From positions 1 through 40,500 of the forward strand of contig VXPS01000262.1 of NCBI GenBank assembly GCA_009839425.1: DNA of 40,500 bases, read 5' to 3'. A program made the position numbers and the translations under genes. The stretch's first letter is position 1; every line of letters starts with the position of its first letter. This DNA comes from Chloroflexota bacterium. Lineage in GTDB: Bacteria > Chloroflexota > UBA11872. Below the pieces are notes generated by a model. The model made no database searches and was not told where the DNA came from. It saw only the letters and a program-made list of their open reading frames with translations. This document shows, piece after piece, positions 4,994 through 23,623 of this stretch.

Positions 4994-5149
4994 GGCGTCT
5001 CGTGCTCGGCCTGGATGGGTCCCTCAGCCAGGGAGATGGCAGCCCGCGTGCTGCGCCAGATCGCCAAGCTCCATGACGGCCCCCGTCTACCCAGTGACTA
5101 ACCGACACGCGCCGGTCCGGGCCGACTCCCGGTGCGCTCCGGGCGTCTC

Positions 5150-6565: not shown

Positions 6566-6652
6566 TTTCGCGGCAATTCACGTCTTGGTGCAAAAAAACG
6601 CCGTGAACAGGTTTTGAGACCATCTAGCAACCCAACATGGGGACATGAGGAC

Positions 6653-8068
6653 ATGGAAAGCGGTAGGAAGCCGCCGGAGCGGTTGTACAAGTATCGTGCC
6701 TTGACTGCTCGCACGCTGGACATGGTCGTAGGAGACAGACTTCATTTTGCTGACCCGCGTACGTTCAACGACCCCCTGGATACCCGCCCCTCGCTTCAGA
6801 GCGATGTCAATGGCGTTGAACTCGCGAGAATCCTGTGGATGCTGATTGAACAACGCACCGTCGCCGAAATGCGGACGGCGGCTGCCGCAATGAAACTCAA
6901 GGATCCCGAAACGGCGAATTGGATCGAAACGCGTAGTGGCGAGGAGGCGGATCAGAGCGTAGCTGACATAGTTGATACGGCATTCGGTGGCAGAGACGTG
7001 GATTACGAATCCGAAGTCGAGCCAAAGGGACGCCTCACCTACCGCATCGAGTTGGAACTTCTTCGGAGATACAAGAAGGGGATCGTCTCTTTGGGCGAGC
7101 GGGACGACTGTCCGTTGATGTGGAGCCACTACGGCGATCAGCATCGGGGCATATGCCTGGGCTTTTCGGTGCCGCAGCGGGCATCTCAGGATGTTCAAAA
7201 GGTCGAGTACGATGGAGGGAGGCTGGTCAGGGCAAGCGATATAGCTGCCATGCTCTACGGAGACGATGAAGCCGGAGCCAGAGTCGACAAATCTGTGCTG
7301 TTGAGGAAAGCCAAGAATTGGTCCTATGAACGGGAGTGGCGTCTAATTGGGCGCCAGGGGACACACGGGTCGCCACTGGAACTGGAAGAGATAATCTTTG
7401 GTACAGAGTGTAGGCCGTCAACAAAATACACAGTGGTGAAAGTGCTCAAAGAGAGGACCAAATCGGTGAGATTCTACGAGATGCGCGAGCAACATGGCAC
7501 TTTCGGTCTAGAGAAGTGCGAGTTGAGTGGTAACGAGGAACTCTTTGCTCGTTTGCCCCGGCGGCATCTTTCGACGCTGGAAGCATTCAAACCACTGGCT
7601 ACTCCACCGGCCACTCTTGGAGAAAAGCCGTCCGGCCCTGCAGGCGGTCGGTCCAAGACAACCGAAGAGGACGACCCGGAGGTGTCGCGCACAGTCGAAG
7701 TTTCCGAGTGGACTTTCGGTCGTTTCCAACAGTCAAAAAAGAGCAGCAAGGAATCAGACGATGCCGCGTTGCGGCGGCTGATCGTATCGATGCGCCCTTG
7801 GGTGAGTCATGGCGTGTCGCTGCCCCACGGGACACTGCTGGTGATGCACAACCACGGACAGAGGCACTACGGAGTCATCCTGGGGGGTTCATGGATAGTC
7901 GGTGGCAAGAGATTTCAGTCCCCCAGCGCAGCCTCACGCGAGGTAGGTCGGACCCTTGACGGACGGAAGACCGAATGGAACGGCTGGCGTGAATGGAGCG
8001 TGAAGCGGCCTGGAGATAAGGAGTGGATGTCGCTATCGCTGTTGCGCCTCCAGAGCAAACGGGTGTGA
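6653..8068 (+). CDS. DUF2971-like N-terminal domain protein with DUF4357-like C-terminus
   Basis: ORF 6614-8068, with the first ATG at 6653. N-terminal LYKYR...LHFADPRTFNDPLD...LMWSHYGDQHRGICLGF fits the DUF2971 pattern. C-terminal FQSPSAASREVGRTLDGRKTEWNGW fits the DUF4357 pattern. Lower GC than the surroundings. Confidence 0.7.
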   Translation: MESGRKPPERLYKYRALTARTLDMVVGDRLHFADPRTFNDPLDTRPSLQSDVNGVELARILWMLIEQRTVAEMRTAAAAMKLKDPETANWIETRSGEEADQSVADIVDTAFGGRDVDYESEVEPKGRLTYRIELELLRRYKKGIVSLGERDDCPLMWSHYGDQHRGICLGFSVPQRASQDVQKVEYDGGRLVRASDIAAMLYGDDEAGARVDKSVLLRKAKNWSYEREWRLIGRQGTHGSPLELEEIIFGTECRPSTKYTVVKVLKERTKSVRFYEMREQHGTFGLEKCELSGNEELFARLPRRHLSTLEAFKPLATPPATLGEKPSGPAGGRSKTTEEDDPEVSRTVEVSEWTFGRFQQSKKSSKESDDAALRRLIVSMRPWVSHGVSLPHGTLLVMHNHGQRHYGVILGGSWIVGGKRFQSPSAASREVGRTLDGRKTEWNGWREWSVKRPGDKEWMSLSLLRLQSKRV

Positions 8069-9694: not shown

Positions 9695-10447
9695 ATGCAA
9701 ACAGTTTGCAAACTTTGCGTAAAAGAAGAAAACACTCTCCTTTCGCACATAATTCCCGAGTGGGGTTATGCTGGAGCGTACGACAATAAGCACCGCTTTG
9801 TTCCTTATGATGCACTAAATGAAAAAGAGGGTCGGATAGAGCAAAAGGGTATCCGCGAGCGAATGTTATGCGGCAAGTGCGAGACTGTATTCAGCAAGTG
9901 GGAACAATATGGTAAGAGCGTGTGGGAGTTGAAAACAGGCCAATGGAAGACACTTAGTAACGGAAGTTTAGTTGGATTGAACTTGGAGTACAAGAAATTA
10001 AGATTATTTTTGCTTTCGATCCTGTGGCGTGCCCATGTTGCAGAAGGTTGTTTCGCAGAAAACGTGGCTCTCGGTCCGCACGGCGAGAGGATTCGTCTCA
10101 TGCTGTTGAATAATGATCCCAATGGGCCAGAGTTGTATCCGTGCATGATGATGCGAATCTTCGAGGGCAACACGCCGCAAGAGGTTGGATTACGGTTTCC
10201 GATCTGCGGGCGATGGTACGGGGAGCGAGCCTACTCAGTGGCCTTCAAGGGTATTGGGTTGCTCTACATTATGAAACGGGGAGCTCGGCGTGAGGTCAGC
10301 CAACGAAGATCAATTAACATAGCTGGAGAATTAGTCATCGGCACCAGTCAAGCCCTCAATTGGGTTGGAGGTATGGAAAACCTGCAGATAGCATGGCCAG
10401 TAGAGAGACTTGTCCGAGAGGCTATTGGTGACAGCGAGGGGGAATAG
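9695..10447 (+). CDS. Hypothetical protein with N-terminal CxxC...H...CxxC arrangement
   Basis: 250 aa in a low-GC stretch. CKLCVKEENTLLSHIIPEW and LCGKCETVFSKWE resemble the metal-binding scaffold of HNH_5-like proteins, but without a clear catalytic Asn. Confidence 0.5.
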   Translation: MQTVCKLCVKEENTLLSHIIPEWGYAGAYDNKHRFVPYDALNEKEGRIEQKGIRERMLCGKCETVFSKWEQYGKSVWELKTGQWKTLSNGSLVGLNLEYKKLRLFLLSILWRAHVAEGCFAENVALGPHGERIRLMLLNNDPNGPELYPCMMMRIFEGNTPQEVGLRFPICGRWYGERAYSVAFKGIGLLYIMKRGARREVSQRRSINIAGELVIGTSQALNWVGGMENLQIAWPVERLVREAIGDSEGE

Positions 10448-11013
10448 GTGCTTGAAAATACTTCACTGCCTCTAAACGCGGTAACTGCCCTTTAATCGAA
10501 AGCGTGAGCAAATCTGCAGAGGTGCGAGTCCTCGTGCAGGTTCGGATCACGAAATTCCGCAAATTGCGTTGGTTCCATGCGGACGCGCCAGAGCCCGCGC
10601 TAGGAGTCGCCGCTGAACAGGGTGGCGGCTCCGGCCATCAGCCGTGATTTCTCGTATTGTGGTCATTTGTACGAGTTCCTGCGGCGGGCGACCGAGAAGT
10701 TTCTCGCCATTCCCGGCCCATAGCGTCCGGCAGGTCAGGATGGTGGCTCTGCTGCTTCGCGTTCGATACGCTACGCCGTCGGAACCGCCGATGGCGTGCC
10801 CCAATTTGTTTTCTTGTTTGGTGCATGCCAATGGGCGCGCATGATTGCGTTCTACGACTGAGTTGCCGCAGGACCCGCGCAGATTCCCTCCGGGCAATCG
10901 TTGCAGCGATTCCCAACGAAAGGGCACATGCTTCCGGTTCAGGTTTCCCGTGAAGTCGCAGTCATCGATTCAGCCAGGGCTTGCTGGCTGAGTCGCCGTA
11001 GGCCCTCGTGGTC

Positions 11014-11403
11014 TCAGGTTCGTACCCGGACCGCATCAGGTAAGTCCAAGACACGGCGGGCTCCCAGCACGTCCGAGGTCACGATTTCGTCGCCCGTTTC
11101 CTCGTCGGTGCTCACTGACAGATTCTCAACCTTCTGCGCGCTCAGGCAGGGATTGTGACCAACAAACGCGATAGGTCCGTCCGCTGTGCGTTCCACTTGA
11201 AATCGATATGGCCTGTGGTCCGGTCGACTGTCCAATTCAAGGCTGGCGCGCTCGCGGGTGGAGAGGAACAGGAGGTCGTGCAGTCTTTGAAGGTTGTCGG
11301 AAACATAGTCCTCACTCTTTCCCGCACTCACGATATCGACAATCGGGTGCGTGACGGCTGCGTGTTCGCCAAACCATTTCAAACTGGTCACCCAAGCTGT
11401 CAT
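11014..11403 (-). CDS. Hypothetical protein
   Basis: 129-aa ORF with protein-like composition. No recognisable motif. Confidence 0.35.
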   Translation of the reverse strand: MTAWVTSLKWFGEHAAVTHPIVDIVSAGKSEDYVSDNLQRLHDLLFLSTRERASLELDSRPDHRPYRFQVERTADGPIAFVGHNPCLSAQKVENLSVSTDEETGDEIVTSDVLGARRVLDLPDAVRVRT

Positions 11404-11539
11404 CGATTGAACTCCCGTTCCTCGGACCGCAAACGTGCGCCCGAATCTACAGGGCTAGAGCCGTTTTCCACCCGTATGCATGCACGGGCCCGTCGATGAG
11501 CCGTACCCGGCCCCAACCCGGTCACGGAGTTTCGGCAGA

Positions 11540-11614
11540 ATGCAATTGCCTTTGTTGCGGGAACACTGTATAACTATATGATTTTATGTGTATTATATAG
11601 AAGGAAGAGCAAAC
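11540..11614 (+). promoter_or_regulatory. AT-rich putative promoter and RBS region upstream of the ssp-like operon
   Basis: tgtataactatatgattttatgtgtattatatagaaggaagagcaaac precedes a GTG at 11615. aaggaag is a plausible Shine-Dalgarno sequence. Confidence 0.3.
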
Positions 11615-12805
11615 GTGACCCATCCGCGCGATAGGGCTGGAACCTTGGCCAGAAGATCCGGGTCACGCGTTCGTCAAGAACCGATCTTCCTTGATTTTCA
11701 GGCGACCACGCCACTGGATCCGGTTGTGCTCGAGGCGATGCTTCCCTGGATGAGCGGCGCGTGGAACGCCCACGCGATTGAACATGGCATGGGTCGCACA
11801 GCCAGCGCGGCAGTGGAGACGGCCAGGGAACAGGTTGCGGCGCTGCTCGGGTGTCGGTCATCCGAGATCACGTTTACTTCGGGCGCGACCGAGGCCTCGA
11901 ACATCGTCTTGCGTGGCGCCACAAGTGCTGGCGACGCAGTCGTGACGACAGAACTCGAGCACGCAAGCGTCTCGGAAACCGCCGATGACCTGGAGGCCAA
12001 TGGCAGATTCATCCATCGCGTCACGGCCAGCGAAGACGGAATCGTCGACGTCGCTGCACTTGCTGAAGCGTTGGACTCGCAGCCAGCGCTCGCGTCAATC
12101 ACCGCCGTCAACAGCGAAATCGGAACGGTCCAGCCGATCGACGACGTGGCCGCGATGTGCGCGGATCGCGACGTCCCGCTGCACAGCGACCTGACGCAGG
12201 CGGTGGGCAGGATTCCGGTGAAGCTCAGCGACTGGTTCGTGTCGTACGCCTCGATTTCCTCCCACAAGATCTACGGGCCCCAGGGGATCGGCGCACTCTT
12301 CGTTGCGGACGCCGCCGCCGCGCCCAGGCCCCTCGCGACGGGCGGAGGGCAGGAGAACGGGTTGAGACCCGGAACGCTTCCCGTTGCAAGCTGCATCGGC
12401 TTTGGTGCGGCGTGCGACCTGGCTCGGACGCGCCGGGAGCAGGATGATGCGCACGCCCAGACGCTCGCGCGCATGATGCTGAACGGGCTATCCGAACTCG
12501 AAGGATGGCAGTTGAACGGATCGCTGGAGACACGCATCCCGCACAATCTCAGTGTGGCCTTCGAAGGGGTGGATGCCGAGATGCTGCTGGCGTCGCTACC
12601 GGAGCTCGCGCTTGCAACAGGTTCAGCATGCAGCGCCGGATCGCTTCGAGGATCCGCGACGTTGCGCGCCATCAGCGTGCCGGAACCTCTGGCAAACGGC
12701 ACCATTCGGATCGGCTTCGGCCGGACCACTACCCCGGAAGAGGTCCGGACGGCCGCGAGCCTCTTGTGCGATCGTGTGCACTTGCTTCGAGGCGACGCGC
12801 CATGA
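11615..12805 (+). CDS. sspA: Class V aminotransferase-fold cysteine desulfurase (SspA/DndA/IscS-like)
   Basis: The ORF track starts at 11588; a GTG at 11615 has the better RBS. PLP-lysine motif SSHKIYGPQGIGALF, catalytic Cys loop ATGSACSAGS, N-terminal FLDFQATTPLDP. Stop overlaps the next start (ATGA). Confidence 0.82.
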   Translation: MTHPRDRAGTLARRSGSRVRQEPIFLDFQATTPLDPVVLEAMLPWMSGAWNAHAIEHGMGRTASAAVETAREQVAALLGCRSSEITFTSGATEASNIVLRGATSAGDAVVTTELEHASVSETADDLEANGRFIHRVTASEDGIVDVAALAEALDSQPALASITAVNSEIGTVQPIDDVAAMCADRDVPLHSDLTQAVGRIPVKLSDWFVSYASISSHKIYGPQGIGALFVADAAAAPRPLATGGGQENGLRPGTLPVASCIGFGAACDLARTRREQDDAHAQTLARMMLNGLSELEGWQLNGSLETRIPHNLSVAFEGVDAEMLLASLPELALATGSACSAGSLRGSATLRAISVPEPLANGTIRIGFGRTTTPEEVRTAASLLCDRVHLLRGDAP

Positions 12806-13734
12806 CGGCGACGGGTGGCCCTGACGCTCCGGAGGTCGGATGGCCGATTGTGCCCGGTCCGCGTGTCTTCTCCGGGCACGAGTCGTTCGCTTGCCGGTAC
12901 GGCTGGATCCCGAAACTGTACGAAGCTGTGATCGAGGATCCGGACCTGTTTGCGTCGGACGATCACGCGATCCTTCGGCTGGGACTCGGCCGCAACATGG
13001 TCAAGTCGCTCCGTTTCTGGGGAGAGGCGCTCCGGCTCACCCAGCGGAACGGGCGGGAGGTACACGTCACGGAGTTTGCCCGGATGCTGCTGGACCCGCG
13101 GGTCGGCCAGGACCCGTACCTTGAAACTCCGGGTGCGCTCTGGCGCCTCCACTGGACGCTGACCGTGCACGCCGGCCTGGGGGCATGGGCCGTGGTCTTC
13201 TTGGAAATGCAGGACCGTGAGATCACCAGAGAGCGACTGGTGACAGCCGTGCGCGGGTGCGCTGCGCGCGTGCGCGGAACGATTACTTCGGGCACGGCCG
13301 CCAACCATGTCAATGTGTTCCTCCAGACCTACGCGGCAAGCGAGCAGGCGGAAGGACCGCCAGAGGAGACGCTGGGCAGCCCTTTCCAGGAACTGGCGCT
13401 GGTGCGGCTGGCGGCGCCGGGCGGCGTGCCGACAGTGCGGCTCCCACGCGGCCCCAAGCGGTCGCTCGACGCGAGCGCGCTTGCCTTCATCCTGCACGAC
13501 TTCTGGCAGGGCAGCATGCCCGGGAGCGAAACCCTGTCCCTGCGGTCGCTCATGCTCGCGCGCGCTGCCCCCGGTGCAGTCCTGCTGCTGGATGAACCCG
13601 GCCTGCACGAGGCGCTCGATTCCGTCTGCTGCCGGTCGGGTAGGCTTACACTGCGGGGCGACGGAGCCGGCGGTCTGGACCTGACCTGCAAAGGTGAGCC
13701 ATTGCGCGAACTCTGGGAGATAGCTTGGTCATGA
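12802..13734 (+). CDS. sspB: DUF4007-like protein (SspB-like, putative nickase of Ssp phosphorothioation systems)
   Basis: In-frame ATG at 12802 within ORF 12505-13734. N-terminal VFSGHESFACRYGWIPKLYEAV matches the DUF4007 opening pattern as I recall it. ATGA coupling at both ends. Confidence 0.7.
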   Translation: MTATGGPDAPEVGWPIVPGPRVFSGHESFACRYGWIPKLYEAVIEDPDLFASDDHAILRLGLGRNMVKSLRFWGEALRLTQRNGREVHVTEFARMLLDPRVGQDPYLETPGALWRLHWTLTVHAGLGAWAVVFLEMQDREITRERLVTAVRGCAARVRGTITSGTAANHVNVFLQTYAASEQAEGPPEETLGSPFQELALVRLAAPGGVPTVRLPRGPKRSLDASALAFILHDFWQGSMPGSETLSLRSLMLARAAPGAVLLLDEPGLHEALDSVCCRSGRLTLRGDGAGGLDLTCKGEPLRELWEIAWS

Positions 13735-16700
13735 CCGGACCCACAGTCGCTACGCGGGTCACCGTTGGACGCCGCTACGTGCGGGCCGTCGAAATCACGC
13801 GCGACGTCGACGATCCGGATGCCCTCGACGGGTACGTCATCACGCCGTCAGTGCGCGATGCGGCCGTCCGCATTTGCGCTGGGCTGTCCCCCACCTCGAC
13901 ACAGCGTGCGTTCCGCGTTGTCGGCCCGTATGGCGCCGGAAAATCCGCGTTCGCCGTGTTCCTCGCTCAGCTCTGCCGGGAGCACGGAGAAGGACCGGCC
14001 ATGGAGCTTCTCGCGGCAGCGACCGGCGGCTCGGTGGCGATCGCGCCGTGGCGGCCGGCCGTTGTCAGCGGCCGGCGGATCAGCTTTGCACGCGAACTGC
14101 TGAGCGTCGTCGTCCGGGAATGCAGCGCTGGCACGACGGAAGTCGCAGAAGCCGCGGCACAGGCTGCTGCATTGCTGACGCGGGACGATCCACTTGATGT
14201 CCAGGAGGTTGTCGCGCTCCTTGAGTCCGCGGCTGCAGCCGTGCGGCAAACCTCCGGCGAGGGCCTGCTGCTGCTCGTTGACGAGATGGGCAGGTTCCTG
14301 GAGCACGCCGCGCTGGGTAACGAAGATCCGTCCATCTTTCAGGCGCTCGCCGAGCGGGCGGGCGGGCGCCCGGGAGCCGACCTCGCGGTCGTCGGCTTCC
14401 TCCATCACCGTTTTGCCGACTATGTGGCCGGACTGGGCAAGTGGATGGAGGCGGAATGGACACGATCGTCGGAGCGTTACGAGGAAGTGCCATTCAGCAG
14501 CTCTTCCGAACAGTCGCTCTTCATGCTGGCCCGTGCACTGACGCCGGTTCGGCGCCACACGCCTGCGGTGCGGAAACGGGCGGCCGAGCTCTATGGAGAA
14601 GCGGTGGACCGCGGCCTGTTTGCGGTGGCGCGCGAGGATGCCACTGATGTCTCGCAGACGCTGTACCCGCTGCACCCTGTGGCGGTTGCGACCCTCGTTT
14701 GGGCGATGCGGCGGTTCGGCCAGAACGAGCGATCACTGTTCAGCTTCCTGGGGTCCCTTGAACCCTCAGGTTTCCAGCGGTTCGCGCACGCCACCCGGTA
14801 CGACGCGGCGCACTGGTATCGGGCGCCGCACGCGTTCGACTACCTAGCGGCCATGATCAGCGGCTCCCCGGGGAGCGATCGTGGACGGCGATGGTCGCTG
14901 GCGTTTGACGCTGTGGCCCTTGCGGACGGCCTGCCGGGACGGCATCAGGACGTACTGAAGACCGTCGCGCTGGCGGCCGTCCTGGAACCAGTTCCCGGGT
15001 TGGTCGCCGACAACGATACGGTCGCCTGGTCCGTCGGAATGGATCCAGCGGAGACAGACCGGATTCTCGCAGATCTGGCGGAGCGCAAGCTGATCTATCG
15101 CCGATCGCACCGCCAGGACTATGCCCTCTGGTCAAGCTCCAGCGTCGATCTGTCGCAGTGGCTGGAGGATGCAAAGTTGCATGCCCGCATCCCGGAGCGC
15201 CTAGATGACGTCGAGTCCCTGTGGAAGCTCGCTCGGCCGGTGGTCGCCCACCGCCATTACCACGCCACCGGAACGCTCCGGACCTTTGAAGTTCGGCTTT
15301 GGGCAGGCGGGCAAGTCGCTGCACGCGAGGCCGACGGGCTGATCCTGATTGCACCGACCCACCCGGGCGAGGATATGGAGGCGGTGCTGCGCCAAGCGGC
15401 GGCTGCAGTTGCCGACGACCCGCTTGCACTGGTGTGCGCGCGTGCGATTCACCGGGACGACCTGGAATGGGCTCGTGAACTCACGCTGTGGCGCTGGATA
15501 CGCGAAAACTGCGACGAACTCAGGGTGGACGAACTGGCGCGAGCGGAGGTGTACGAACGCATTGCTGCGGCCGAGCGAGCGCTCACGCGGGTTGCCGCGC
15601 TCCTGTCGACGGTGAGCGACGAACGCGCGGAAGCATGGTGGCATGCAGGCAAGCCGGTCACCATGCCCAAGGGACTAAGCGCTTTCCTCAGCGACATCTG
15701 CGATCGCGTGTACGATGAGGCCCCGATCCTGAAGAACGAACTTATCAACCGTAGACGCCTCTCGGCGGCTGGCGCCAGCGCTCGAATGCGCCTGCTGGAC
15801 AGAATGCTCAGCAGTGCCAATCGCGATCAGCTGGGAATGGACAGCGCTCCACCCGAGCGCACGATCTTTCGATCCGTGTTCCTGACGTCCGGCATGCATA
15901 CGCCAACAAGCAATGGCATGTTCGCCTTCGCTCTACCCAGTCTGTCGGACCCGTGCCGCTGGAGACCGGTCTGGCAACGCATTGAGGAGCTGATCCACAC
16001 TGACGAGCCCATTGGTTTCGGCGTCCTCATGGACGAGTTGGGGCGGCCACCGTACGGCTTGCGCGCCGGACCGGCCCTGCTCGTGATCGTGGCAATCATC
16101 CTGGCGTCGAGACTTCATGTTGCGGTCATGGAGCGAAACAGCTTCGTGCCTGAACTGTCGGTGGCGCATCTGATGCGGCTCGCCAAGTCGCCAAACCGTT
16201 TTGCTGTCAAGTCCCTGCACGAGGGTGCCGCACGAAAGGGAGTTGTGCGGGCACTGGCCGCACGGCTGCAGGTTGCGGGAGCGCGTTCTGCAACACTGCA
16301 CGCACTTTCCGAGTGGCTCTTCACCTGGTACAACGCGCTACCCGTTTACGCGTTGCAGACCCGGACGATCTCCCCTGTCGCGCTCGCAGTCCGCACCGCG
16401 CTGCGCAAGGCATCGGAACCCGGACTTTTGTTCTTTCATGAACTGCCGGCAGCGTGCGCTGCACTGCGCGACCGCGGACGGATCGATATCGAACGCTATC
16501 TTGACGTGCTTGACGACGCGTTGCGCGAAATTGGTGACGCTGCGCCCAAGCTACGGATGCGAGCTGCTGCCGCTACCCAGGAAGCATTCGGCGCCGATGA
16601 TATCGCGACGCTCCGTTCCCGGTTCCAGGACGACTACCCACCGCACTGCCTGGAAAGACTGGATGATCGACTGCGGAACTTCGTGGAGCGAGCGATCGAT

Positions 16701-17093
16701 GCGCAAAGGACCGACGATGAATGGCTGGACCGGATCGCAGGCCATGTGTCCGGTCATCGGCCGGAGAGCTGGGACGACGACACGCTCAACCAGTTCGCAG
16801 TGGAAATCCGGGCCATGGCCGGCAATCTGGCGCGCTGGCTCGCCTTGGCCGGAACCCGGCCGGGGTGCGGAACGGATCTGCAAAGCGTCCACGTTGTCGG
16901 GCTCAACGGGCAGGAACGCGTCGTCGTTGTCCGCCGTGACCGGCCGAACCCGCAGCTGCACAGCCGGCTGAACGCGGTGCGGGAGGCTCTCGGTAACGAG
17001 CCCAACGCCGTGGAGGTGCTGGGGCACCTCCTCGCCGAATACACGGAAGGCCATGTCGGTTGGCAGGAGAGAAAAGCGGTCAGTTCGACATGA
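13731..17093 (+). CDS. sspC: Large P-loop ATPase (SspC-like / DUF499-BrxC-like)
   Basis: About 1120 aa. Walker A VVGPYGAGKSAFAV, Walker B-like LLLLVDEMGRF. ATG at 13731 overlaps the upstream TGA. Its own stop overlaps the next ATG. Confidence 0.68.
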   Translation: MTGPTVATRVTVGRRYVRAVEITRDVDDPDALDGYVITPSVRDAAVRICAGLSPTSTQRAFRVVGPYGAGKSAFAVFLAQLCREHGEGPAMELLAAATGGSVAIAPWRPAVVSGRRISFARELLSVVVRECSAGTTEVAEAAAQAAALLTRDDPLDVQEVVALLESAAAAVRQTSGEGLLLLVDEMGRFLEHAALGNEDPSIFQALAERAGGRPGADLAVVGFLHHRFADYVAGLGKWMEAEWTRSSERYEEVPFSSSSEQSLFMLARALTPVRRHTPAVRKRAAELYGEAVDRGLFAVAREDATDVSQTLYPLHPVAVATLVWAMRRFGQNERSLFSFLGSLEPSGFQRFAHATRYDAAHWYRAPHAFDYLAAMISGSPGSDRGRRWSLAFDAVALADGLPGRHQDVLKTVALAAVLEPVPGLVADNDTVAWSVGMDPAETDRILADLAERKLIYRRSHRQDYALWSSSSVDLSQWLEDAKLHARIPERLDDVESLWKLARPVVAHRHYHATGTLRTFEVRLWAGGQVAAREADGLILIAPTHPGEDMEAVLRQAAAAVADDPLALVCARAIHRDDLEWARELTLWRWIRENCDELRVDELARAEVYERIAAAERALTRVAALLSTVSDERAEAWWHAGKPVTMPKGLSAFLSDICDRVYDEAPILKNELINRRRLSAAGASARMRLLDRMLSSANRDQLGMDSAPPERTIFRSVFLTSGMHTPTSNGMFAFALPSLSDPCRWRPVWQRIEELIHTDEPIGFGVLMDELGRPPYGLRAGPALLVIVAIILASRLHVAVMERNSFVPELSVAHLMRLAKSPNRFAVKSLHEGAARKGVVRALAARLQVAGARSATLHALSEWLFTWYNALPVYALQTRTISPVALAVRTALRKASEPGLLFFHELPAACAALRDRGRIDIERYLDVLDDALREIGDAAPKLRMRAAAATQEAFGADDIATLRSRFQDDYPPHCLERLDDRLRNFVERAIDAQRTDDEWLDRIAGHVSGHRPESWDDDTLNQFAVEIRAMAGNLARWLALAGTRPGCGTDLQSVHVVGLNGQERVVVVRRDRPNPQLHSRLNAVREALGNEPNAVEVLGHLLAEYTEGHVGWQERKAVSST

Positions 17094-17890
17094 GGCACAT
17101 TCTCAGCCTCTCCGGCGGCAAGGATTCGGCGGCACTCGCCATCTACATGCGCGATCGCGTGCCCGAGATGGAGTACGTCTTCTCCGATACCCGCAAGGAG
17201 CTCCCGGAAACGTACGCGTACCTGGAGCGGATCGAGGACTATCTGGGAAGGCGGGTAAACCGGCTCAACGCCGAGCTGGGCTTCGACCACTGGTACGAGG
17301 TCTACGGCGGGATGATTCCCTCAAACCACCGCCGATGGTGCACCAAAATGCTCAAGCTCAAGCCGTTCGAGCAATTCGTAGGTGACGATCCCGTACGCAA
17401 CTACGTCGGGTTGCGCGCCGACGAGAACCGTTCTGGCTACATCAGCCACAAGCCAAACATTACGCCGGTCTATCCATTCCAGCAGGACGGGCTGAAGCTC
17501 GAGGACATCGAGGAAATCCTGCAATCTTCGGGAATCGGGATGCCGCCCTACACGGCATGGGGCCGGTCCCGGTCGGGATGCTACTTCTGCTTTTACCAGC
17601 AGAAAATCGAATGGGTTCGCTTGAAGGAGCAGCACCCGGAGCTCTTCGAGGCAGCAAAGGCCTACGAACGGCCGTTTGCGGGCAGCGGCAACACGTTCAC
17701 CTGGAGCCAGCAGGAATCGCTGACGGAGCTGGAACGGCCAGAGCGTGTGCAAGCAATCAAGGACGAGCACACCCGCCGCCAGGCCGCAAGGAAGGCCAGT
17801 GGCGCGGACCTGACGCTCGCCGAGGTCTACCGACGCCGCGCCGCACAGGACGACGCGGATGATGACGCCTGCCTGATCTGTCACCTGTAA
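17090..17890 (+). CDS. sspD: PAPS reductase/ATP pyrophosphatase-fold protein (SspD-like)
   Basis: PP-loop SLSGGKDSAA near the N-terminus. C-terminal CYFCFYQQ and DDACLICHL Cys motifs. ATG at 17090 in ORF 17060-17890. Confidence 0.8.
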   Translation: MRHILSLSGGKDSAALAIYMRDRVPEMEYVFSDTRKELPETYAYLERIEDYLGRRVNRLNAELGFDHWYEVYGGMIPSNHRRWCTKMLKLKPFEQFVGDDPVRNYVGLRADENRSGYISHKPNITPVYPFQQDGLKLEDIEEILQSSGIGMPPYTAWGRSRSGCYFCFYQQKIEWVRLKEQHPELFEAAKAYERPFAGSGNTFTWSQQESLTELERPERVQAIKDEHTRRQAARKASGADLTLAEVYRRRAAQDDADDDACLICHL

Positions 17891-17900
17891 GGGCGCCACG

Positions 17901-20252
17901 ATGAGCTTCAAGTTTGCGGCCCGCACGATCCTGGAGCTTGGCAAGGAACTGATCAGCTCCGACGAGGTGGCGCTCTACGAGTTGATCAAGAACGCGGTCG
18001 ACGCCGGGTCGCCACGCATCGAAATTGCCGTGCACAACCTGCTGGGTGGATCCCGATACCGTGAAGCAGTCGAGCGCCTCACGGAAGAAGGCCAGAGCCG
18101 GTCCGAGGTTCTGAAGTTCGTCCGCGCGGGACTGGTCGATTCGGACAGACCGGTTTCCGAGGAACTCCTGGCCAGTCTCAAGAAATGTTCGGGCAACAGG
18201 AGTTTCCTGCAAACGCTCCGGTCATTCCATGACGACGTGAACTACATCGAGATCCGGGATACCGGACATGGAATGAGTCTGGACGAGTTGAAGGACGTCT
18301 TTCTCCGGATCGGGACGTACTCCCGCCGGAACGAAAATCTGAAGGGCGCGCAACACCTGGGAGACAAGGGCATCGGGCGTCTTTCGGCAATGCGGCTGGG
18401 CGATCGTTTACGGGTCACCACCACGAAGCGCGGCGAGCAATACTGGAACCTGCTGGACATCGACTGGGCACTGTTCGCGGGCGATGAGGATGTCGATGCA
18501 GACTCCATCAGCCTTGAACCCGAACTTGGGGACGAGAAGATCGACCGCGACAAGCAGGGAACGGTCGTCCGCATTTCGGCGCTGCGGGGCGATTGGGACA
18601 AAGAGCGGTTTACGGACATGCTGCAGGGCAAGGTTGCCCGGATGGTCGATCCGTTCATCCGTGGTAACGCCAACCGTCTGATCGTTGCCAGGCACAATGG
18701 TACGCGAGTGCAAGTGCCGTCCATTCGAGCAACGCTGCTCCGAGCCGCGCATGCCGTCTGCCATGTGGAGTTTCGCATGGAGGATGACACGCCGGTCATC
18801 GAAGGCGAGATCAACTACCGGCTTCGGCATCGGAAGCGGCGGATCGATGCCCAAGGCCCCGAGCTCTACTCACTCACGCAGGAAGCGGTCAAGCGGCGGG
18901 CAAAACGGGGACACGCCGCGTTCAGATTGATCCCGATACGGCCAGCTGCCCTGAAACGCTTGGATCATTTCAAGTGCGACATTTACTGGTTCAACCGCAA
19001 TGCGTTAGTGGGCGTCGAGGGCCTCAGCGAGGGACGGGACGAAACCCGGAAGCAGATCTCATACTGGAGCGGTGGCCCGATGCTCTATCGGTACGGGTAC
19101 CGCATCCTGCCCTACGGGGATCTTGATGATGACTGGCTGGGACTGGACGAAGCAGCTTTCGGGGCCAGCGGGTTCAAGCTCAATCGTCAGCAGGTGATCG
19201 GGCGGGTGCGCATCGACACACCCCACAGCGCATTGAGTGAGAAGACCGACCGCGAGGGCCTGATCGACTCCGACACATTCAACGCGCTGCAGAAGATCCT
19301 GATTTGGATCGTGCATACGGAAATGCGCGGGTTGATCAACCTGGCTGACAAACTGGAACAGGACAAGGGACGTGAGGCCGATCTGGACACGCAGACCGTC
19401 GCGAAAATGCGTGCCCGAGTCGAAGCGGCACTTCAGCGCCTGTGTGAACAGGTTGGTGATTCGTCTGCCGCCGAAATCAAGTCCCTCTCACGCAGCGTAG
19501 AGAGCCTTGCGAAGCACTCCCAGGATCTCGTCGAACGGATCGACGGCGTCATCAAAGAGGCTGATCAAGAGCGTGAAAAATACGTCTACCTTGCGGGCAT
19601 CGGCCTGATGACCGAGTTCATCTTCCATGAACTCGAGAGGGCAGTTTCCCATGCAATGGAGGCCGTGTCCGGCCGCACACTAAGACAGTCGACGATCGAA
19701 TCCCTGCGCGAACAGCTGAAGACGCTGCACAAGCGAATCGCTGCGTTCGATGAGCTCACGACCGAGAAACGGCAAAGGAAGTCGACTGTTGACCTCGCCG
19801 AAGTTGTCGACCTCACCCTGGAGAATCACATTCGCAAATTCGAGCGACACGGAATCGTCGCAAGTGTCGAACCGCCAGACCGTTCCTTCAAGGTGAAGGC
19901 TGTGCGCGGAATGGTCATCCAGATCCTTGAGAACCTCATCGTCAATGCGGCCTATTGGCTCAAGGAGCAGAGACAGTTCGAAACCGACTTTAGGCCGACA
20001 TTGAAAGTGAGCCTCGATGCCGATGCCAAGACGGTGACGGTGGAGGACAATGGCCCGGGAGTGATCGTCGACCGGCGCGAGCATATCTTTCAGCCCTTTA
20101 TTTCATTGAAGCCGTCTGGGCTCGGTCGAGGTCTCGGGCTGTACATCTCCCGTGAGATGGCCGAATATCACGGTTGGAAGCTTCGCATGACCGAGGACGT
20201 CGGCCGTGTGCGTGACGGGCGATTGAACGCGTTTGTGCTTGATATGGGGTAA
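17901..20252 (+). CDS. Dual GHKL protein: N-terminal Hsp90/MORC-type ATPase module plus C-terminal histidine-kinase core (H-box + HATPase_c)
   Basis: N-terminal module: YELIKNAVDAG (N-box), IRDTGHGMS (G1), GDKGIGRLSAMRLG (G2). C-terminal module: FIFHELERAV (H-box-like), ILENLIVNAAYW (N), VEDNGPGV (G1), IFQPF (F), GLGRGLGLYISRE (G2). Starts 10 nt after sspD. Confidence 0.8.
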   Translation: MSFKFAARTILELGKELISSDEVALYELIKNAVDAGSPRIEIAVHNLLGGSRYREAVERLTEEGQSRSEVLKFVRAGLVDSDRPVSEELLASLKKCSGNRSFLQTLRSFHDDVNYIEIRDTGHGMSLDELKDVFLRIGTYSRRNENLKGAQHLGDKGIGRLSAMRLGDRLRVTTTKRGEQYWNLLDIDWALFAGDEDVDADSISLEPELGDEKIDRDKQGTVVRISALRGDWDKERFTDMLQGKVARMVDPFIRGNANRLIVARHNGTRVQVPSIRATLLRAAHAVCHVEFRMEDDTPVIEGEINYRLRHRKRRIDAQGPELYSLTQEAVKRRAKRGHAAFRLIPIRPAALKRLDHFKCDIYWFNRNALVGVEGLSEGRDETRKQISYWSGGPMLYRYGYRILPYGDLDDDWLGLDEAAFGASGFKLNRQQVIGRVRIDTPHSALSEKTDREGLIDSDTFNALQKILIWIVHTEMRGLINLADKLEQDKGREADLDTQTVAKMRARVEAALQRLCEQVGDSSAAEIKSLSRSVESLAKHSQDLVERIDGVIKEADQEREKYVYLAGIGLMTEFIFHELERAVSHAMEAVSGRTLRQSTIESLREQLKTLHKRIAAFDELTTEKRQRKSTVDLAEVVDLTLENHIRKFERHGIVASVEPPDRSFKVKAVRGMVIQILENLIVNAAYWLKEQRQFETDFRPTLKVSLDADAKTVTVEDNGPGVIVDRREHIFQPFISLKPSGLGRGLGLYISREMAEYHGWKLRMTEDVGRVRDGRLNAFVLDMG

Positions 20253-20254
20253 CG

Positions 20255-22201
20255 ATGGACCACGCCAAGCGTATCATTCAGGCATTCAAGTCGAACGAGA
20301 TCCAGAGAATTCTGCTGGTCGATGACGCGTATGATCCCCCGGATCTCGATGAAGATGTCACGGCGCCGGTGGCCGATTTTCTGTTAACGGAGGAGGGTCT
20401 AGCAGCCTGCGAAGACTGCGGAATCGAACCAGATACACGTGAGCGAGCAGCCAGTGCCGCGGAGGCAGGGGATCCCACCAACCCGGCACTTGTGGAAATG
20501 TATCATGCCCTCTACGCAAGGTTTACCGAAACCGGCGAGGAGCGGTTTGATCCTGGTGAACGGTTTCGCCTTATCAAGGAAGGCGCGCTGAAGGATCTTC
20601 ACCCGCTACGCGCTTTCCTGGGACAGTGCGGTGACGGTATACAAGTGCGGACGGTTGGCCTGGACAACGCCCCGGCCTGCTTCGGAGAGTTTCGACCGCA
20701 AGTCTTGTTTCTTGACTACTACCTGAGCGACGATGTTCCCCCCACGGGCGACGTGAGCGAAGGCAAGAAGGAACAGGCAAGGAAAGCATCGCTCGATCTG
20801 CTGCGACAGTTGGTGGAAACCAAAGACATCGATGGCATTCCGGCGATCGTGCTCATGTCCTCCCGGGAAATAGCTGACGTCAACAGTTACCGGCACGATC
20901 TGGGAGAGCCGCACGTCCTCGCCCTCCGGTTTCACTTCCTGCAAAAGCGATCGATCCTGTACAAGGATGGCAAACTCGTCCCGGAGCTGGATGCCGTCAA
21001 TGCGCTTCTGAATACAAGTCAGGGCTACCTGTTCCGCCAGCAGGTTCAGCACGCGCTCGCACAATGGAAAAATGGTGCGGAAGATGCGCTTCGCGCATTC
21101 ATGGAAAATGTCAGCGATCTGGAAACGAAAGATTTTGCCTACCTCCTGCGTTTCCGGCTTCGCGAGGACGGACAGACGCTGGGCGACTATTTGGACTGGT
21201 TTTTTGGTGAATGCCTGAAAGGCTTCGTCGAGGAGAAGGTCGACTGGCAACACAGTTCGTTCGCGTCCCTCAATGCAGACGGGCGCCCTGAGCAGGGAAT
21301 CGAAGGTGCCTTCGAAGGACCATCCCCCACTATCGCAAGGTTGTTTCACCGCGTGCGGGTGACAAGCCGTCGGGGACACCCGGGGATGGATTATCGACTG
21401 GGCGATCTATTTGCCGAGCGCAGGACGAACCGCATTTGCACAGTGATCACGCCAGATTGCGACCTCGTACAACGAAACGGCCCACCGAAAGCCGAAAGCG
21501 TCCTCACCATGAGGGGCACCGTCAAGTCGTTCGATGATGAGAACAGTTCCGCTGACGACTTCCTGCTCCTGAAGGACGGGCTCTGCAGTGTTCGGTGGGA
21601 TCCGAAAGACCTGCAGACCTTTCCCTACAGCGGGCGGGGGGCGCTGGCCACCCACTACAGGTTCAAGTTTCTCGGTACTTTGCGTCCACTCTATGCGCAA
21701 GAGATTCAGCGACGGGCGCTGACGGATCTTGCCCGTGTTGGCCTGCCGGTCGCTCCGGCATTTGGAATCAACACTCCCGCCAGCGTCTGGGTGCGGGAGG
21801 CGGGACGACACTTCACCGAGATACACCTGTCGAGTCAGGCAATTGCAACCATGGTTCCGCCTCGGACAGGAGAACACCAGGTTGCCAAGTTCGTGCTCCG
21901 GCGCAGGTTTCTTGATGAAATGATCACCAAATTGAGCCAGATAGCACCGGATTCCATGTCCAGCGGAGATCATGGCTCGCTCCGCGCGCTTCAAACGGAA
22001 GATGCACTTGAGAAGCTGTATGCCACGTTTCTGATCGACGGCGGCCGGATTGGCGACAACTGTTACGGGATCGGGCTCACCATGGGAACAGAGCCCCGCC
22101 AAGGAAAAAAGGCAAATTGGCTGCAGATTGTCCTCGGAACCCCCGCCGACGTGATGGAAACAATCGTTACCTTCGATCCCATCACGAATGCATCCGGTTA
22201 G
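20255..22201 (+). CDS. Receiver (REC)-like N-terminal domain protein with a large uncharacterised C-terminal domain
   Basis: RILLVDDAYD (acidic pocket), VLFLDYYLSDD (candidate phospho-Asp), AIVLMSS and FLQKR in REC-like order, with an insertion of about 110 aa after strand 1. The C-terminal 400 aa have no motif I recognise. Start is 2 nt after the upstream stop. Confidence 0.65.
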   Translation: MDHAKRIIQAFKSNEIQRILLVDDAYDPPDLDEDVTAPVADFLLTEEGLAACEDCGIEPDTRERAASAAEAGDPTNPALVEMYHALYARFTETGEERFDPGERFRLIKEGALKDLHPLRAFLGQCGDGIQVRTVGLDNAPACFGEFRPQVLFLDYYLSDDVPPTGDVSEGKKEQARKASLDLLRQLVETKDIDGIPAIVLMSSREIADVNSYRHDLGEPHVLALRFHFLQKRSILYKDGKLVPELDAVNALLNTSQGYLFRQQVQHALAQWKNGAEDALRAFMENVSDLETKDFAYLLRFRLREDGQTLGDYLDWFFGECLKGFVEEKVDWQHSSFASLNADGRPEQGIEGAFEGPSPTIARLFHRVRVTSRRGHPGMDYRLGDLFAERRTNRICTVITPDCDLVQRNGPPKAESVLTMRGTVKSFDDENSSADDFLLLKDGLCSVRWDPKDLQTFPYSGRGALATHYRFKFLGTLRPLYAQEIQRRALTDLARVGLPVAPAFGINTPASVWVREAGRHFTEIHLSSQAIATMVPPRTGEHQVAKFVLRRRFLDEMITKLSQIAPDSMSSGDHGSLRALQTEDALEKLYATFLIDGGRIGDNCYGIGLTMGTEPRQGKKANWLQIVLGTPADVMETIVTFDPITNASG

Positions 22202-22637
22202 CAGCCCGTAAGCCCGGCTACCGGTTCTGCGACCCCGAGATGGCTCGACGCGAGAAGCCCTTCGCATCCAGGTGTTCGCGCTGATCGATCACACCCGGAC
22301 CGCGCCAGGAAACAGCCTTGCCGCTGGCCAGCGGGCCTGCCAGAGGACGCTGTACAGCGCCTCGATCGACGGGGTCGGCCCGCACGCCGCGACCACGTCC
22401 CCACCTGTCCCAGCACGCCTTGAGGGTCGCCGCTTCTTTCGAGACGCGCAGCCAAGGCCCGCAGCCCTGCCCGTCTTGCGGTATCCAACGCTTCCTTCGA
22501 GATCCCGTGTATGTCGGCCGCTTCCGCTGCATGAACCAGCGCGGCCGCCTGCTCCGCATACCAGAGGCGGCGCGCTGCCTCCGAGCTCGGATCGGATCGC
22601 CCGAGCACCAAAGGCGGGCCGGCGAGGTCGCGGCCGC

Positions 22638-23318
22638 GAACGAGCCGTTGAACGACTCGATGAAGGCGTTGTCGGTGGGCTTGCCCGGCCTTGAGAAGTC
22701 GAGTGTCACGCCGTTGAGCCAGGCCCACAGATCAAGCGCCTTGCTGATGAACTCGGGCCCGTTGTCGAGGCGGATCGTCTTCGGTGTGCCGTAGACGCGA
22801 GTGACCCGCTCCAGTGTCTCGACCACGTCCGTGCCGCGGTAGTGCGGCCGCACGTCGATCGCCGGCGAGAGCCGGCTGTAGGCATCGACGATGGTGAGGA
22901 TGCGGATCCTGCGCCCGTTGAACAGCTGGTCCGAGAGGAAGTCCATCGCCCACACCTGGTTCGGCGCTGCGGGCGGAGAGCGGTCCCCGCGAAGCTTCGC
23001 CGCGACCCGGCGCTTGGGCGTCTTATGGCGCAGTTGCAGGCCTTCCTCGGTGTAGAGCCGGTAGATCCGCTTCACGTTCACCTGCCAGCCTTCGCGTCGC
23101 AGGAGCACGTGGATCCGGCGATACCCGTAGCGTACCCGGGTCTCGGCGATCTCGCGGATGCGCTGGCTCAGGACCGCCTGCGATGGCCGGCGGGCGGCGT
23201 AGTGGTAGCTCGACCGGCCGGCTCCCAGCACCGCGCATACGCGCCGGATGCTCACCTGCCAGACCTCCCGAGTCTCGTCGACCAGCTCCCGCCGCCGCGC
23301 CGGCCCTAGAGCTTTTTT
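22638..23318 (-). pseudogene. IS3-family transposase OrfB (rve/DDE), C-terminal part missing or scrambled
   Basis: WAMDF, TIVDAYSR, LDNGPEF and KPTDNAFIESFNG motifs are present. After FNGSF, none of the three frames shows the expected ECLN...WF...RPH tail. Confidence 0.7.
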
Positions 23319-23623
23319 CGCACCACCTCCTGGAGCATCTCCTTGTCGAGACTCAGGTCCGCCACCAGCCGCTTCAGGCGCTGGTTCTCCTCCTCGAGCT
23401 GCTTGAGACGCTTCATCTCGGAGGGCATCAGCCCGCCGTACTTCTTGCGCCATCGGTAATACGTCTGCGCGGAGATCCCCGCCTTCCGGCAGACCTCCTC
23501 GACCCGCGTCCCTTCCTCCGCCTGGCGCAGGATGAACGCAATCTGCTGCTCGCTGAACTTCGACCGTTTCATGGCCTCTTCCCCACTGGGTCCATGAAAA
23601 CCTATCCGAGAATTCTCTCGCAA
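23306..23623 (-). CDS. IS3-family transposase OrfA (HTH + leucine zipper)
   Basis: MKRSKFSEQQIAFILRQAEEGTRVEEVCRKAGISAQTYYRWRKKYGGLMPSEMKRLKQLEEENQRLKRLVADLSLDKEMLQ is a textbook IS3/IS407 OrfA. Confidence 0.88.
   Translation of the reverse strand: MRENSRIGFHGPSGEEAMKRSKFSEQQIAFILRQAEEGTRVEEVCRKAGISAQTYYRWRKKYGGLMPSEMKRLKQLEEENQRLKRLVADLSLDKEMLQEVVRKKL

Follow-up and report, generated by a model that had tools for sequence, protein, structure and literature searches.

The ssp operon and its two additional genes

We analyzed a stretch of 40,500 nucleotides from a Chloroflexota bacterium of the UBA11872 lineage (GenBank assembly GCA_009839425.1, contig VXPS01000262.1, positions 1 to 40,500 of the forward strand), referred to here as the window, and concentrated on a run of six genes on the + strand that spans 11588-22201 (g1 - g6, Table 1). 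The first four genes match sspA - sspD, which specify phosphorothioation of the DNA backbone, and the last two, g5 and g6, were predicted to encode a histidine kinase and a receiver protein. What is new here is an Ssp system with a conserved, uncharacterized two-component partner cassette.

An earlier note on this DNA, made from the letters and their open reading frames (ORFs), had described six head-to-tail genes with ATGA overlaps or gaps of 2-10 nt, and direct reading of the junctions bore this out. ATGA start/stop overlaps were found at g1/g2, g2/g3 and g3/g4, and gaps of 10 nt and 2 nt were found at g4/g5 and g5/g6, respectively. A consensus scan of the interval 10400-23600 returned no promoter-like site on the + strand, and the five terminator-like sites in the same interval, compared to a mean of 9.4 for shuffled sequence, were not in excess. 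Since the genes overlap or abut, with neither an internal promoter-like site nor an excess of terminators, the layout is that of a single operon, and the junctions suggest that g5-g6 are translationally coupled to sspD.

The profiles of Pfam and PADLOC supported the reading of genes 1 to 4 as SspABCD that the note had also made. The product of g1 matched Aminotran_5 in Pfam (expectation value, E, 2.4e-65) and both SspA (1.3e-113) and DndA (8e-112) in PADLOC; its start codon is placed only to within about 30 codons, the similarity to its relatives beginning at residues 3-33. The g2 product matched DUF4007 (Pfam, 9.7e-57) and SspB (PADLOC, 6.6e-71), the g3 product matched SspC (4.7e-238) and BrxC (6.5e-110) in PADLOC and nothing in Pfam, and the g4 product matched PAPS_reduct (Pfam, 3.9e-11) and SspD (PADLOC, 3.2e-116). 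Judged by these matches, g1 - g4 are predicted to form a canonical SspABCD phosphorothioation module.

The note had further claimed that the operon has no DGQQR motif and that its last two genes are not SspE, SspF, SspG or SspH, and both claims were upheld by a six-frame motif scan of the window and by Pfam and PADLOC profile searches. The scan found no DGQQR motif, and tblastn with queries from two related loci (L007 and L035) found no SspF, SspG or SspH in the window. Neither g5 nor g6 matched SspE, SspF, SspG or SspH in PADLOC or DUF262 or DUF1524 in Pfam, the other PADLOC matches being weak ones of g5 that cover its GHKL region only. The PADLOC models of SspF, SspG and SspH scored E = 0 to 1e-196 on neighboring genes in related loci (E = 0 in L007 and L002). 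We rejected the proposal that g5 and g6 are divergent forms of SspE, SspF, SspG, SspH or another known defense protein, for which PADLOC, Pfam and NCBIfam gave no such match. The possibility that SspFGH or SspE lies elsewhere in the window was likewise rejected by tblastn and the motif search; the flanks encode an IS3 transposase and a Tn7-like set instead.

Table 1. Coordinates of the ssp operon, of the domains of g5 and g6, and of the downstream transposition genes in the window
Feature	Position	Strand	Description	Basis
g1 (sspA)	11588-12805	+	Pyridoxal phosphate-dependent cysteine desulfurase (sulfur donor)	Pfam, PADLOC
g2 (sspB)	12802-13734	+	DUF4007 protein	Pfam, PADLOC
g3 (sspC)	13731-17093	+	1120-aa BrxC-like ATPase	PADLOC
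g4 (sspD)	17090-17890	+	PAPS-reductase-like ATP pyrophosphatase	Pfam, PADLOC
g5	17901-20252	+	783-aa predicted cytoplasmic histidine kinase with second GHKL ATPase at N-terminus	Pfam, homologues
g5 residues 1-235	17901..18605	+	Hsp90/MORC-type GHKL ATPase module
g5 residues 236-470	18606..19310	+	Strongly conserved 235-residue middle domain between the GHKL modules
g5 residues 561-630	19581..19790	+	Helix pair for dimerization and histidine phosphotransfer (DHp); predicted phospho-acceptor His576, codon 19626-19628
g5 residues 640-783	19818..20249	+	Kinase catalytic (CA) domain
g6	20255-22201	+	648-aa receiver-effector protein, predicted cognate partner of g5	Alignments, AlphaFold2 model, Foldseek
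g6 residues 1-245	20255..20989	+	Receiver (REC) with helical insert at residues 33-125; predicted phospho-acceptor Asp154, codon 20714-20716
g6 residues 246-370	20990..21364	+	Conserved all-helical linker domain; helices at 245-368 in the model	AlphaFold2 model
g6 residues 380-495	21392..21739	+	Beta-barrel domain with MazF/PemK/CcdB-like predicted fold; putative effector
g6 residues 505-640	21767..22174	+	Variable alpha/beta C-terminal domain
IS3-family transposase	22218-23453	-	HTH_21 and rve domains; begins 17 nt past the g6 stop, on the opposite strand
Large rve/HTH protein	24520-27288	+	Tn7-like set, downstream of IS3
TniQ protein	28451-29347	+	Tn7-like set, downstream of IS3

A predicted histidine kinase with a second GHKL ATPase

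Pfam placed two GHKL domains in g5, HATPase_c_3 at residues 113-221 (2.6e-18) and HATPase_c at residues 672-768 (6e-21), and detected no family beyond these two. The 119 best database relatives of g5 are 58-72% identical to it and carry the source names ‘sensor histidine kinase’ or ‘ATP-binding protein’. We read the motifs of g5 from an alignment of 26 homologues, three distant ones included, and the residues called invariant below are invariant in this alignment.

The C-terminal half carries the kinase motifs. The H-box F-I-F-H576-E-L-E-R580 of the DHp segment is invariant, as are E677-N678..N682, D716-N-G-P-G720, F730 and G744-L-G-L747 of the CA domain. A profile search against the Protein Data Bank (PDB) matched g5 to kinases over the DHp and CA segments (LvrB, 4e-22; HK853-type, 2e-13); these matches begin at profile positions 519-606 of g5, and the longest of them cover the DHp segment. 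The motifs and matches point to a soluble histidine kinase with intact H, N, G1, F and G2 boxes.

At the N-terminus, the ATP-binding motifs E27..N31..D34, D120-x-G-x-G124 and G154-x-K-G-x-G-R160 are invariant, and the module is predicted on these grounds to have the N-box, G1 and G2 motifs of the Bergerat fold. The PDB profile search matched this module to Hsp90 N-domains (1e-4), and weak matches were seen to restriction and defense proteins that carry a GHKL module, namely to the type II restriction enzymes BbrUII/HgiDII in NCBIfam (1.5e-14) and to REase_II (4.6e-07) and MzaB (2.8e-04) in PADLOC. The middle domain that follows (residues 236-470) gave no sequence match in Pfam or PDB. Its mean majority-residue frequency was 0.72, compared to 0.78 for the DHp segment and 0.73 for the CA domain, and W363-x-N-R366, W389, P404-x-G406, D411-W412 and N428..Q431 are invariant in it. 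The predicted input of g5 is, from its sequence, an Hsp90/MORC-type GHKL ATPase with a conserved middle domain rather than a membrane sensor. MORC/GHKL-type ATPase modules are typical of DNA-engaging machines.

A receiver domain joined to a putative effector

The g6 protein gave no match in Pfam, PADLOC or NCBIfam, the Response_reg family of Pfam included. We modeled it with AlphaFold2 (mean predicted local distance difference test, pLDDT, 84.5) and scored its conservation in two alignments, one of 20 sequences and the other of 85. In both alignments D23, D24, D154 and K231 are invariant, and S202 is invariant among the 20 sequences and at least 90% conserved among the 85. The model has a receiver fold interrupted by a helical insert, and Foldseek matched it to the receivers of Spo0A, MtrA and KdpE with a probability of 0.99. 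Alignment of the receiver minus its helical insert with a profile of CheY, Spo0F, PhoB and NarL by hhalign gave a probability of 73% (E 3e-5), pairing the two adjacent aspartates of g6 with D12/D13 of CheY, D154 with D57 and S202 with T87. The N-terminal part of g6 is a receiver in which the DD/D/S/K signature is complete. We predict that g6 is the cognate response regulator of g5, a pairing for phosphotransfer that is supported by the strict adjacency of the two genes and by their co-variation (rho 0.92, see below).

The all-helical linker behind the receiver is well conserved (mean conservation 0.66). Its invariant residues among the 20 sequences are K292-D-F-A-Y-L-x-R-F-R-L302, Y312, W315, G318-E319 and E350-G351; in the alignment of 85, Y296, L297, R299, F300, L302, Y312 and W315 are still invariant and the rest are at least 90% conserved.

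We modeled the region after the linker (residues 371-648) separately, with a pLDDT of 79. In a Foldseek search of PDB, the top eight matches of this model were toxin or toxin-antitoxin entries of the MazF type, CcdB entries ranked below them, and the best match was 5ck9_B (E 2e-3, probability 1.00, template modeling score, TM, 0.61 on the target). Among the viral structures of BFVD the highest-ranking matches, with probabilities of 0.97-0.99, were PemK-like proteins and an endoribonuclease, and the full-length g6 model also yielded MazF. The predicted fold of residues 380-495 thus matches MazF from four species as well as PemK-like phage proteins. This domain ranks among the better conserved parts of the protein. 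G383, P400, C402, D403, L404, W448, K451, G474, Y480 and Q485 are invariant in both alignments, and D384, D401, R407, T418, D434 and T475 are at least 90% conserved, which argues for a specific activity or interface. The C-terminal domain behind it (residues 505-640) was modeled at a pLDDT of about 80-90 and gave no fold or sequence match in the PDB and BFVD searches; with a conservation of 0.50 it is one of the two least conserved parts of g6. Together, the models suggest that the output of g6 is a beta-barrel of MazF/PemK/CcdB-like fold followed by a variable C-terminal domain.

Pfam and Foldseek found no helix-turn-helix or other DNA-binding output in g6, and Pfam, PADLOC, NCBIfam, the PDB profile search and hhalign recognized in it none of the catalytic motifs of known nucleases or toxins. 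A reading of P400-D401 ... D449-x-K451 as a PD-(D/E)xK motif was dropped, position 449 being D, N or S and the predicted fold being a barrel, unlike a restriction endonuclease. Taken together, the motifs, profiles and fold matches agree with the earlier description of the last two genes as coding for a histidine kinase with two GHKL domains and for a receiver protein whose output was unassigned.

Linkage of the pair to Ssp genes across genomes

Homologues of g6 form about 200 clusters at 90% identity, all of about 650 aa and all named ‘hypothetical’. The output region alone recovered 585 representatives at 50% identity, and nearly all of them have the same length and domain position, indicating that the architecture of g6 is fixed. 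Our genome survey took one genome per GTDB species and yielded 38 loci, distributed over at least eight major lineages; 37 of these loci were used to count linkage. In every full-length locus, the g6 homologue is immediately preceded by a g5 homologue. Within 10-kb flanks of the pair, SspB, SspC or SspD was found in 29 of the 37 loci, SspF, SspG or SspH in seven, and one or the other set in 34. The 34 Ssp-linked loci span Latescibacterota, Thermodesulfobacteriota, Spirochaetia, Acidobacteria, Gemmatimonadaceae and Alpha-, Beta- and Gammaproteobacteria, and the recurrence of the same gene string in dozens of unrelated genomes is more than chance.

Two of the three loci without an Ssp match are on contigs of about 6 kb, and the third is L003. 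In L003 (a metagenome-assembled genome, 1048-7314) the pair follows two PDC-M33-like genes, the gene of a DUF6339 protein, that of a 432-aa protein, which is a weak match to the SspD model, and that of a cysteine desulfurase of the DndA/SspA type. This locus may represent another sulfur-modification system that uses the same pair. Among loci with enough flanking sequence, we found no Ssp-free instance of the pair, L003 being the one exception.

The linkage extends to plasmids and cultured strains. Ssp genes adjoin the pair in each of the five plasmid loci and each of the four isolate loci examined. The plasmid relatives are 22-34% identical, the linkage being kept even by those at 22-26%, and each of the five records has a ‘sensor histidine kinase’ or ‘ATP-binding protein’ gene and a hypothetical gene beside Ssp genes; full SspABCD is present in three, and SspD and SspC are present at the cut edge of the locus in the other two. 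Gene orders vary among these records, and an SspFGH-like trio is present in three of them and a partly visible FtsK/SpoIIIE gene in a fourth. A search seeded with a distant relative from Neptuniibacter added Pseudomonas, Aeromonas, Agrobacterium, Rhizobium, Mesorhizobium and Hydrogenophaga, and the carriers of the pair include, apart from plasmids, cultured strains of Pseudomonas, Aeromonas, Agrobacterium, Rhizobium, Ensifer and Brevundimonas. Viral contigs of IMG/VR yielded no copy of the pair, a result that is uninformative about defense either way. The survey of the last two genes with sspBCD, which the earlier note had proposed, was therefore strongly positive, with 34 of 37 genome loci and all plasmid and isolate loci showing the association; the g5-g6 pair is tied to Ssp genes in essentially every readable locus.

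The partners of the pair differ between loci. A Pseudomonas island (GCA_900585725.1), with a ParE-type toxin-antitoxin pair and integrases at its borders, has no genes other than sspBCD and the g5-g6 pair. In Aeromonas veronii (CP077237.1), sspBCD and the pair face a convergent SspFGH-like trio (634 aa, 516 aa and a 1805-aa FtsK/SpoIIIE protein), and in locus L035 the genes are colinear in the order SspBCD-kinase-receiver-SspFGH. The suggestion that the pair replaces a known Ssp partner is thus correct for the window and for the Pseudomonas island, but not for the module generally, since SspFGH adjoin the pair in seven of the 37 genome loci, on several plasmids and in Aeromonas veronii. The occurrence of the pair beside SspFGH indicates an add-on module and not simply a substitute. 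Related loci also carry separate XRE regulators in front of sspA.

We compared pairwise identities over 25 loci. The identities of g5 and g6 rose and fell together (rho 0.92), those of SspC and SspD did so with rho 0.75, and the cross-module values were 0.43-0.56; the rho values are descriptive only, the loci being related and so not independent tests. Module swaps were seen in L009, which has a close pair and a distant SspC, and in L027, where the reverse holds. From these identities, g5-g6 appears to behave as a cassette that has recombined with divergent SspC lineages. Of the genes of the locus, g6 is one of the faster-evolving. The GC content of sspD, g5 and g6 is 4-6 points below that of sspC of the same locus, which is true of 93-96% of 28 loci for g5 and g6. 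Recent separate acquisition was considered as the reason for the GC drop over g5-g6 and rejected, the lower GC content being a property of the family.

Several further observations were made at these loci. A protein of about 806 aa (family F7) is encoded directly after the g6 homologue, on the + strand, in L026 (12215-14632), L028, L029, L030 and L036 (11988-14420). It is also present in L039, an Ensifer plasmid (6715-9132, - strand; 50% identity to the L036 protein), and as a fragment in L010 (54-641). We rejected this protein as an SspE; it had no PADLOC match, and its only match was a weak one to HATPase_c_3 at the N-terminus. It may be a third component in one subclade. In L012 (5768-11206) inserted ORFs, about 4 kb in all, interrupt the g6 homologue, and sspC, g5 and g6 are all fragmented in L011; these broken genes could reflect decay of the system or errors of long-read assembly. 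Methyltransferase genes were located in or beside the loci of L037 (5870-7360 and 12156-14869), L042 (2229-2933) and L039 (20791-21384). They include S-adenosylmethionine-dependent genes of the Methyltransf_25 type and, directly before sspA in Methylorubrum, a DNA adenine methylase, and they hint at islands of mixed methylation and phosphorothioation.

Surroundings of the operon in the window

With the IS3 and Tn7-like insertions listed in Table 1 lying downstream of g6, the original downstream partner of the operon may have been displaced or cut off. A DUF2971 protein with a weak match to RAMA (restriction-enzyme/methylase-associated) is encoded 3.5 kb upstream of sspA (6614-8068, + strand). 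A DUF2971 protein is also encoded in L043, a plasmid of Agrobacterium sp. T29 (3992-5002, - strand), together with a 1205-aa P-loop NTPase just upstream of the kinase, and it may be a recurrent island neighbor of the pair. A 445-aa ORF antisense to sspA and sspB (12271-13608, - strand) clusters with nothing but comparable antisense ORFs from two further loci and looks spurious, as long ORFs of GC-rich DNA usually are. The GC-rich flank encodes a 659-aa protein (33225-35204, + strand) with 17 matches to RTX calcium-binding nonapeptide repeats (HemolysinCabind, 3e-119) that is unrelated to the ssp operon.

Comparison with known systems

The operon shares the SspA-B-C-D module, its gene order and the position of a partner gene directly downstream of sspD with SspABCD-SspE, which is described as a phosphorothioation-sensing defense (Xiong et al. 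2020, as cited in PMC8092258). SspE is a single protein that joins a DUF262 (DGQQR) NTPase to a DUF1524 nuclease, whereas g5-g6 is a predicted His-Asp phosphorelay pair. The SspABCD-SspFGH system has the same modification module, and the pair adjoins genuine SspF, SspG and SspH (E of 6e-209 or lower in PADLOC) in relatives of the window locus. SspFGH, however, comprises three genes, including those of Walker A and FtsK-like proteins, and lacks a phosphorelay (PMC8092258). Neither g5 nor g6 is one of these proteins by the PADLOC profiles.

A parallel in signaling logic is Detocs (DtcABC), which we take to consist of three genes, those of a kinase, of a buffer receiver that stands alone and of a second receiver that is fused to an effector of the nucleoside-phosphorylase type. 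Both systems would connect a soluble histidine kinase to a receiver that is fused to a non-transcriptional effector. The g5-g6 operon differs in having two genes with no stand-alone receiver ORF, in the MazF-like fold of the g6 effector, in the GHKL ATPase input of g5 and in its obligate linkage to a DNA-modification system. PADLOC 2.0, which we presume to include the Detocs models, gave no Detocs match for g5 or g6. The GHKL modules of BbrUII/HgiDII and MzaB share ATP-binding motifs with the N-terminus of g5. For BbrUII/HgiDII, g5 scored 53.5 compared to a cut-off of 550 bits and only the GHKL core aligned, and g5 fuses this core to DHp and CA domains. MazF, PemK and CcdB toxins resemble the barrel of g6 in predicted fold but are controlled by an antitoxin, whereas the barrel of g6 is embedded in a 648-aa receiver protein, in which control would be exerted by phosphorylation.

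The earlier note had considered such a system to be undescribed. A full-text literature search found no characterization of the g5-g6 pair, with a description in a subscription journal being possible, and the module is not described in a reappraisal of Dnd systems (PMC10853773) or in a paper on BREX diversity (PMC12839542). To this extent the statement stands; it needs to be modified for two papers that mention ssp-adjacent kinases in Acinetobacter. In 211 Acinetobacter strains, histidine kinase genes adjoin sspE and a regulatory role was speculated (PMC7464106 section 3.3, 2020), and in A. baumannii global clone 2 a two-component system lies near a nuclease-less Ssp, for which a possible new variant was suggested (PMC12421847 discussion, 2025). 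These reports resemble our case in the two-component kinase in an ssp neighborhood that often lacks the cognate nuclease. They differ in being passing remarks, with neither a domain analysis nor a receiver partner of toxin fold (PMC7464106, PMC12421847). No Acinetobacter protein was among the g5 and g6 family matches listed.

Interpretation of the g5-g6 pair

The g5-g6 pair is probably a new working part of the Ssp anti-phage system. We infer, with a probability of roughly 0.45, that it is a phosphorelay-gated toxic effector coupled to phosphorothioation. The association of the pair with Ssp genes persists through deep divergence, changes in gene order and exchange of the cassette, which argues for a functional dependence on Ssp and not for hitch-hiking. 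In the mechanism that we propose, the GHKL input of g5 would monitor a DNA-linked or Ssp-linked cue, candidates for which are unmodified incoming DNA, a stalled or inhibited SspBCD, and damage at phosphorothioate sites. The cue would set the phosphorylation state of His576, and phosphotransfer from His576 to Asp154 would switch the toxin-fold domain of g6 on or off, for example through dimerization driven by the receiver, which we propose because MazF-type toxins act as dimers. The resulting growth arrest or attack on nucleic acids would halt the spread of phages or plasmids. The occurrence of the pair alone with SspBCD as well as beside SspFGH implies that in certain hosts it may be the only effector, whereas elsewhere it may form a second layer or act as a controller. 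A more specific proposal is that the pair represents a third class of Ssp partner, in which a MORC/Hsp90-like ATPase kinase would read the state of phosphorothioation or of SspBCD and license a MazF-fold toxin through phosphorylation of the receiver; we consider this doubtful.

Several results weigh against a toxic effector. The toxin assignment comes from the predicted fold only, with marginal Foldseek E of 2e-3 to 6e-2 and TM of 0.5-0.6. The g6 output had no match to PemK_toxin or CcdB in Pfam and no PDB profile match at E up to 10, and hhalign of the output against MazF, Kid, EndoA and CcdB gave probabilities below 1%; the attempt to prove kinship with MazF at the level of sequence failed in both the PDB profile search and hhalign. 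Arg29 of MazF is a catalytic residue, and the equivalent position is Arg in most homologues of g6, Cys in g6 of the window and Val in two homologues. The conserved C402, D403, D384, D401, D434 and K451 of g6 are unlike the MazF active site, and an antitoxin-like gene was not found beside g6.

One alternative is that the pair is a post-translational regulator of Ssp, in which the kinase would sense DNA or redox state and g6 would modulate SspBCD or SspFGH by protein contact, tuning the density of phosphorothioates or restraining restriction against self-damage. That no catalytic motif known from nucleases or toxins was recognized in g6 is in keeping with such a role, and the variable C-terminal domain of g6 could serve to bind a partner. 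Some loci have the pair together with SspFGH and others have it alone; the co-occurrence in part of the loci would suit a purely regulatory role as well, and in L035 the pair sits between the modification and restriction genes. The ssp-adjacent kinases of Acinetobacter were speculated to regulate the restriction component (PMC7464106; PMC12421847). Classical transcriptional control is unlikely, as g6 has no DNA-binding output and related loci carry separate XRE regulators. The approximately 30 invariant or near-invariant output residues, often polar and set in a toxin-like barrel, look enzymatic, and the five-gene islands that lack a restriction partner would be modification-only systems with an elaborate regulator. 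We regard a regulatory role as unlikely on balance.

Two further explanations separate the pair from phosphorothioate-based defense, and both appear improbable. The pair might be an autonomous two-gene defense or abortive-infection system that shares islands with Ssp and acts independently of phosphorothioation. Defense genes generally cluster in islands, g5-g6 is evolutionarily coherent and swapped between divergent SspC lineages, and the window holds genes of the island type (the DUF2971/RAMA protein, IS3 and the Tn7-like element). Mere island neighbors do not show the fidelity seen here, however, with Ssp-type genes adjoining the pair in every well-flanked locus, in many phyla and down to 22% identity. 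The apparent translational coupling of the window pair to sspD speaks against autonomy as well, and no Ssp-free case was found, for even L003 has a cysteine desulfurase and a weak SspD-model match immediately upstream. The pair might instead be a checkpoint outside defense that responds to damage or redox state and halts growth when phosphorothioate sites are oxidized or nicked, a housekeeping measure that would protect the cell from DNA damage of its own making. According to PMC7464106 and PMC11931770, the phosphorothioate sulfur is reactive and lowers fitness under oxidative or inflammatory chemicals. The pair is linked to modification genes more than to restriction genes (29 compared to 7 of the 37 loci), and its GHKL/MORC-type input belongs to a class that is common among ATPases acting on DNA. 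The loci, though, lie on plasmids and in mobile islands with integrases or transposases at their flanks, settings that are typical of defense cargo; the fast evolution of g6 is common for conflict genes.

The phosphorelay-gated effector that we favor would bear on a gap in the known distribution of Ssp systems. Of 2,678 sspBCD modules surveyed in 2021, only about 15% were accompanied by SspE or SspFGH (PMC8092258), and the g5-g6 pair could, if it is the third class of Ssp partner considered above, account for part of the remaining 85% or so of sspBCD clusters, which lack both. The pair may likewise be relevant to Acinetobacter baumannii global clone 2, for whose ssp locus a kinase next to a nuclease-less Ssp has been noted (PMC12421847). 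A functional pair would mean that phosphorothioate-based immunity can be wired to His-Asp signaling and that a receiver domain can take the place of an antitoxin in gating a toxin-type fold. In the third-class reading, if true, a modification of the DNA backbone would for the first time be seen coupled directly to two-component signaling.

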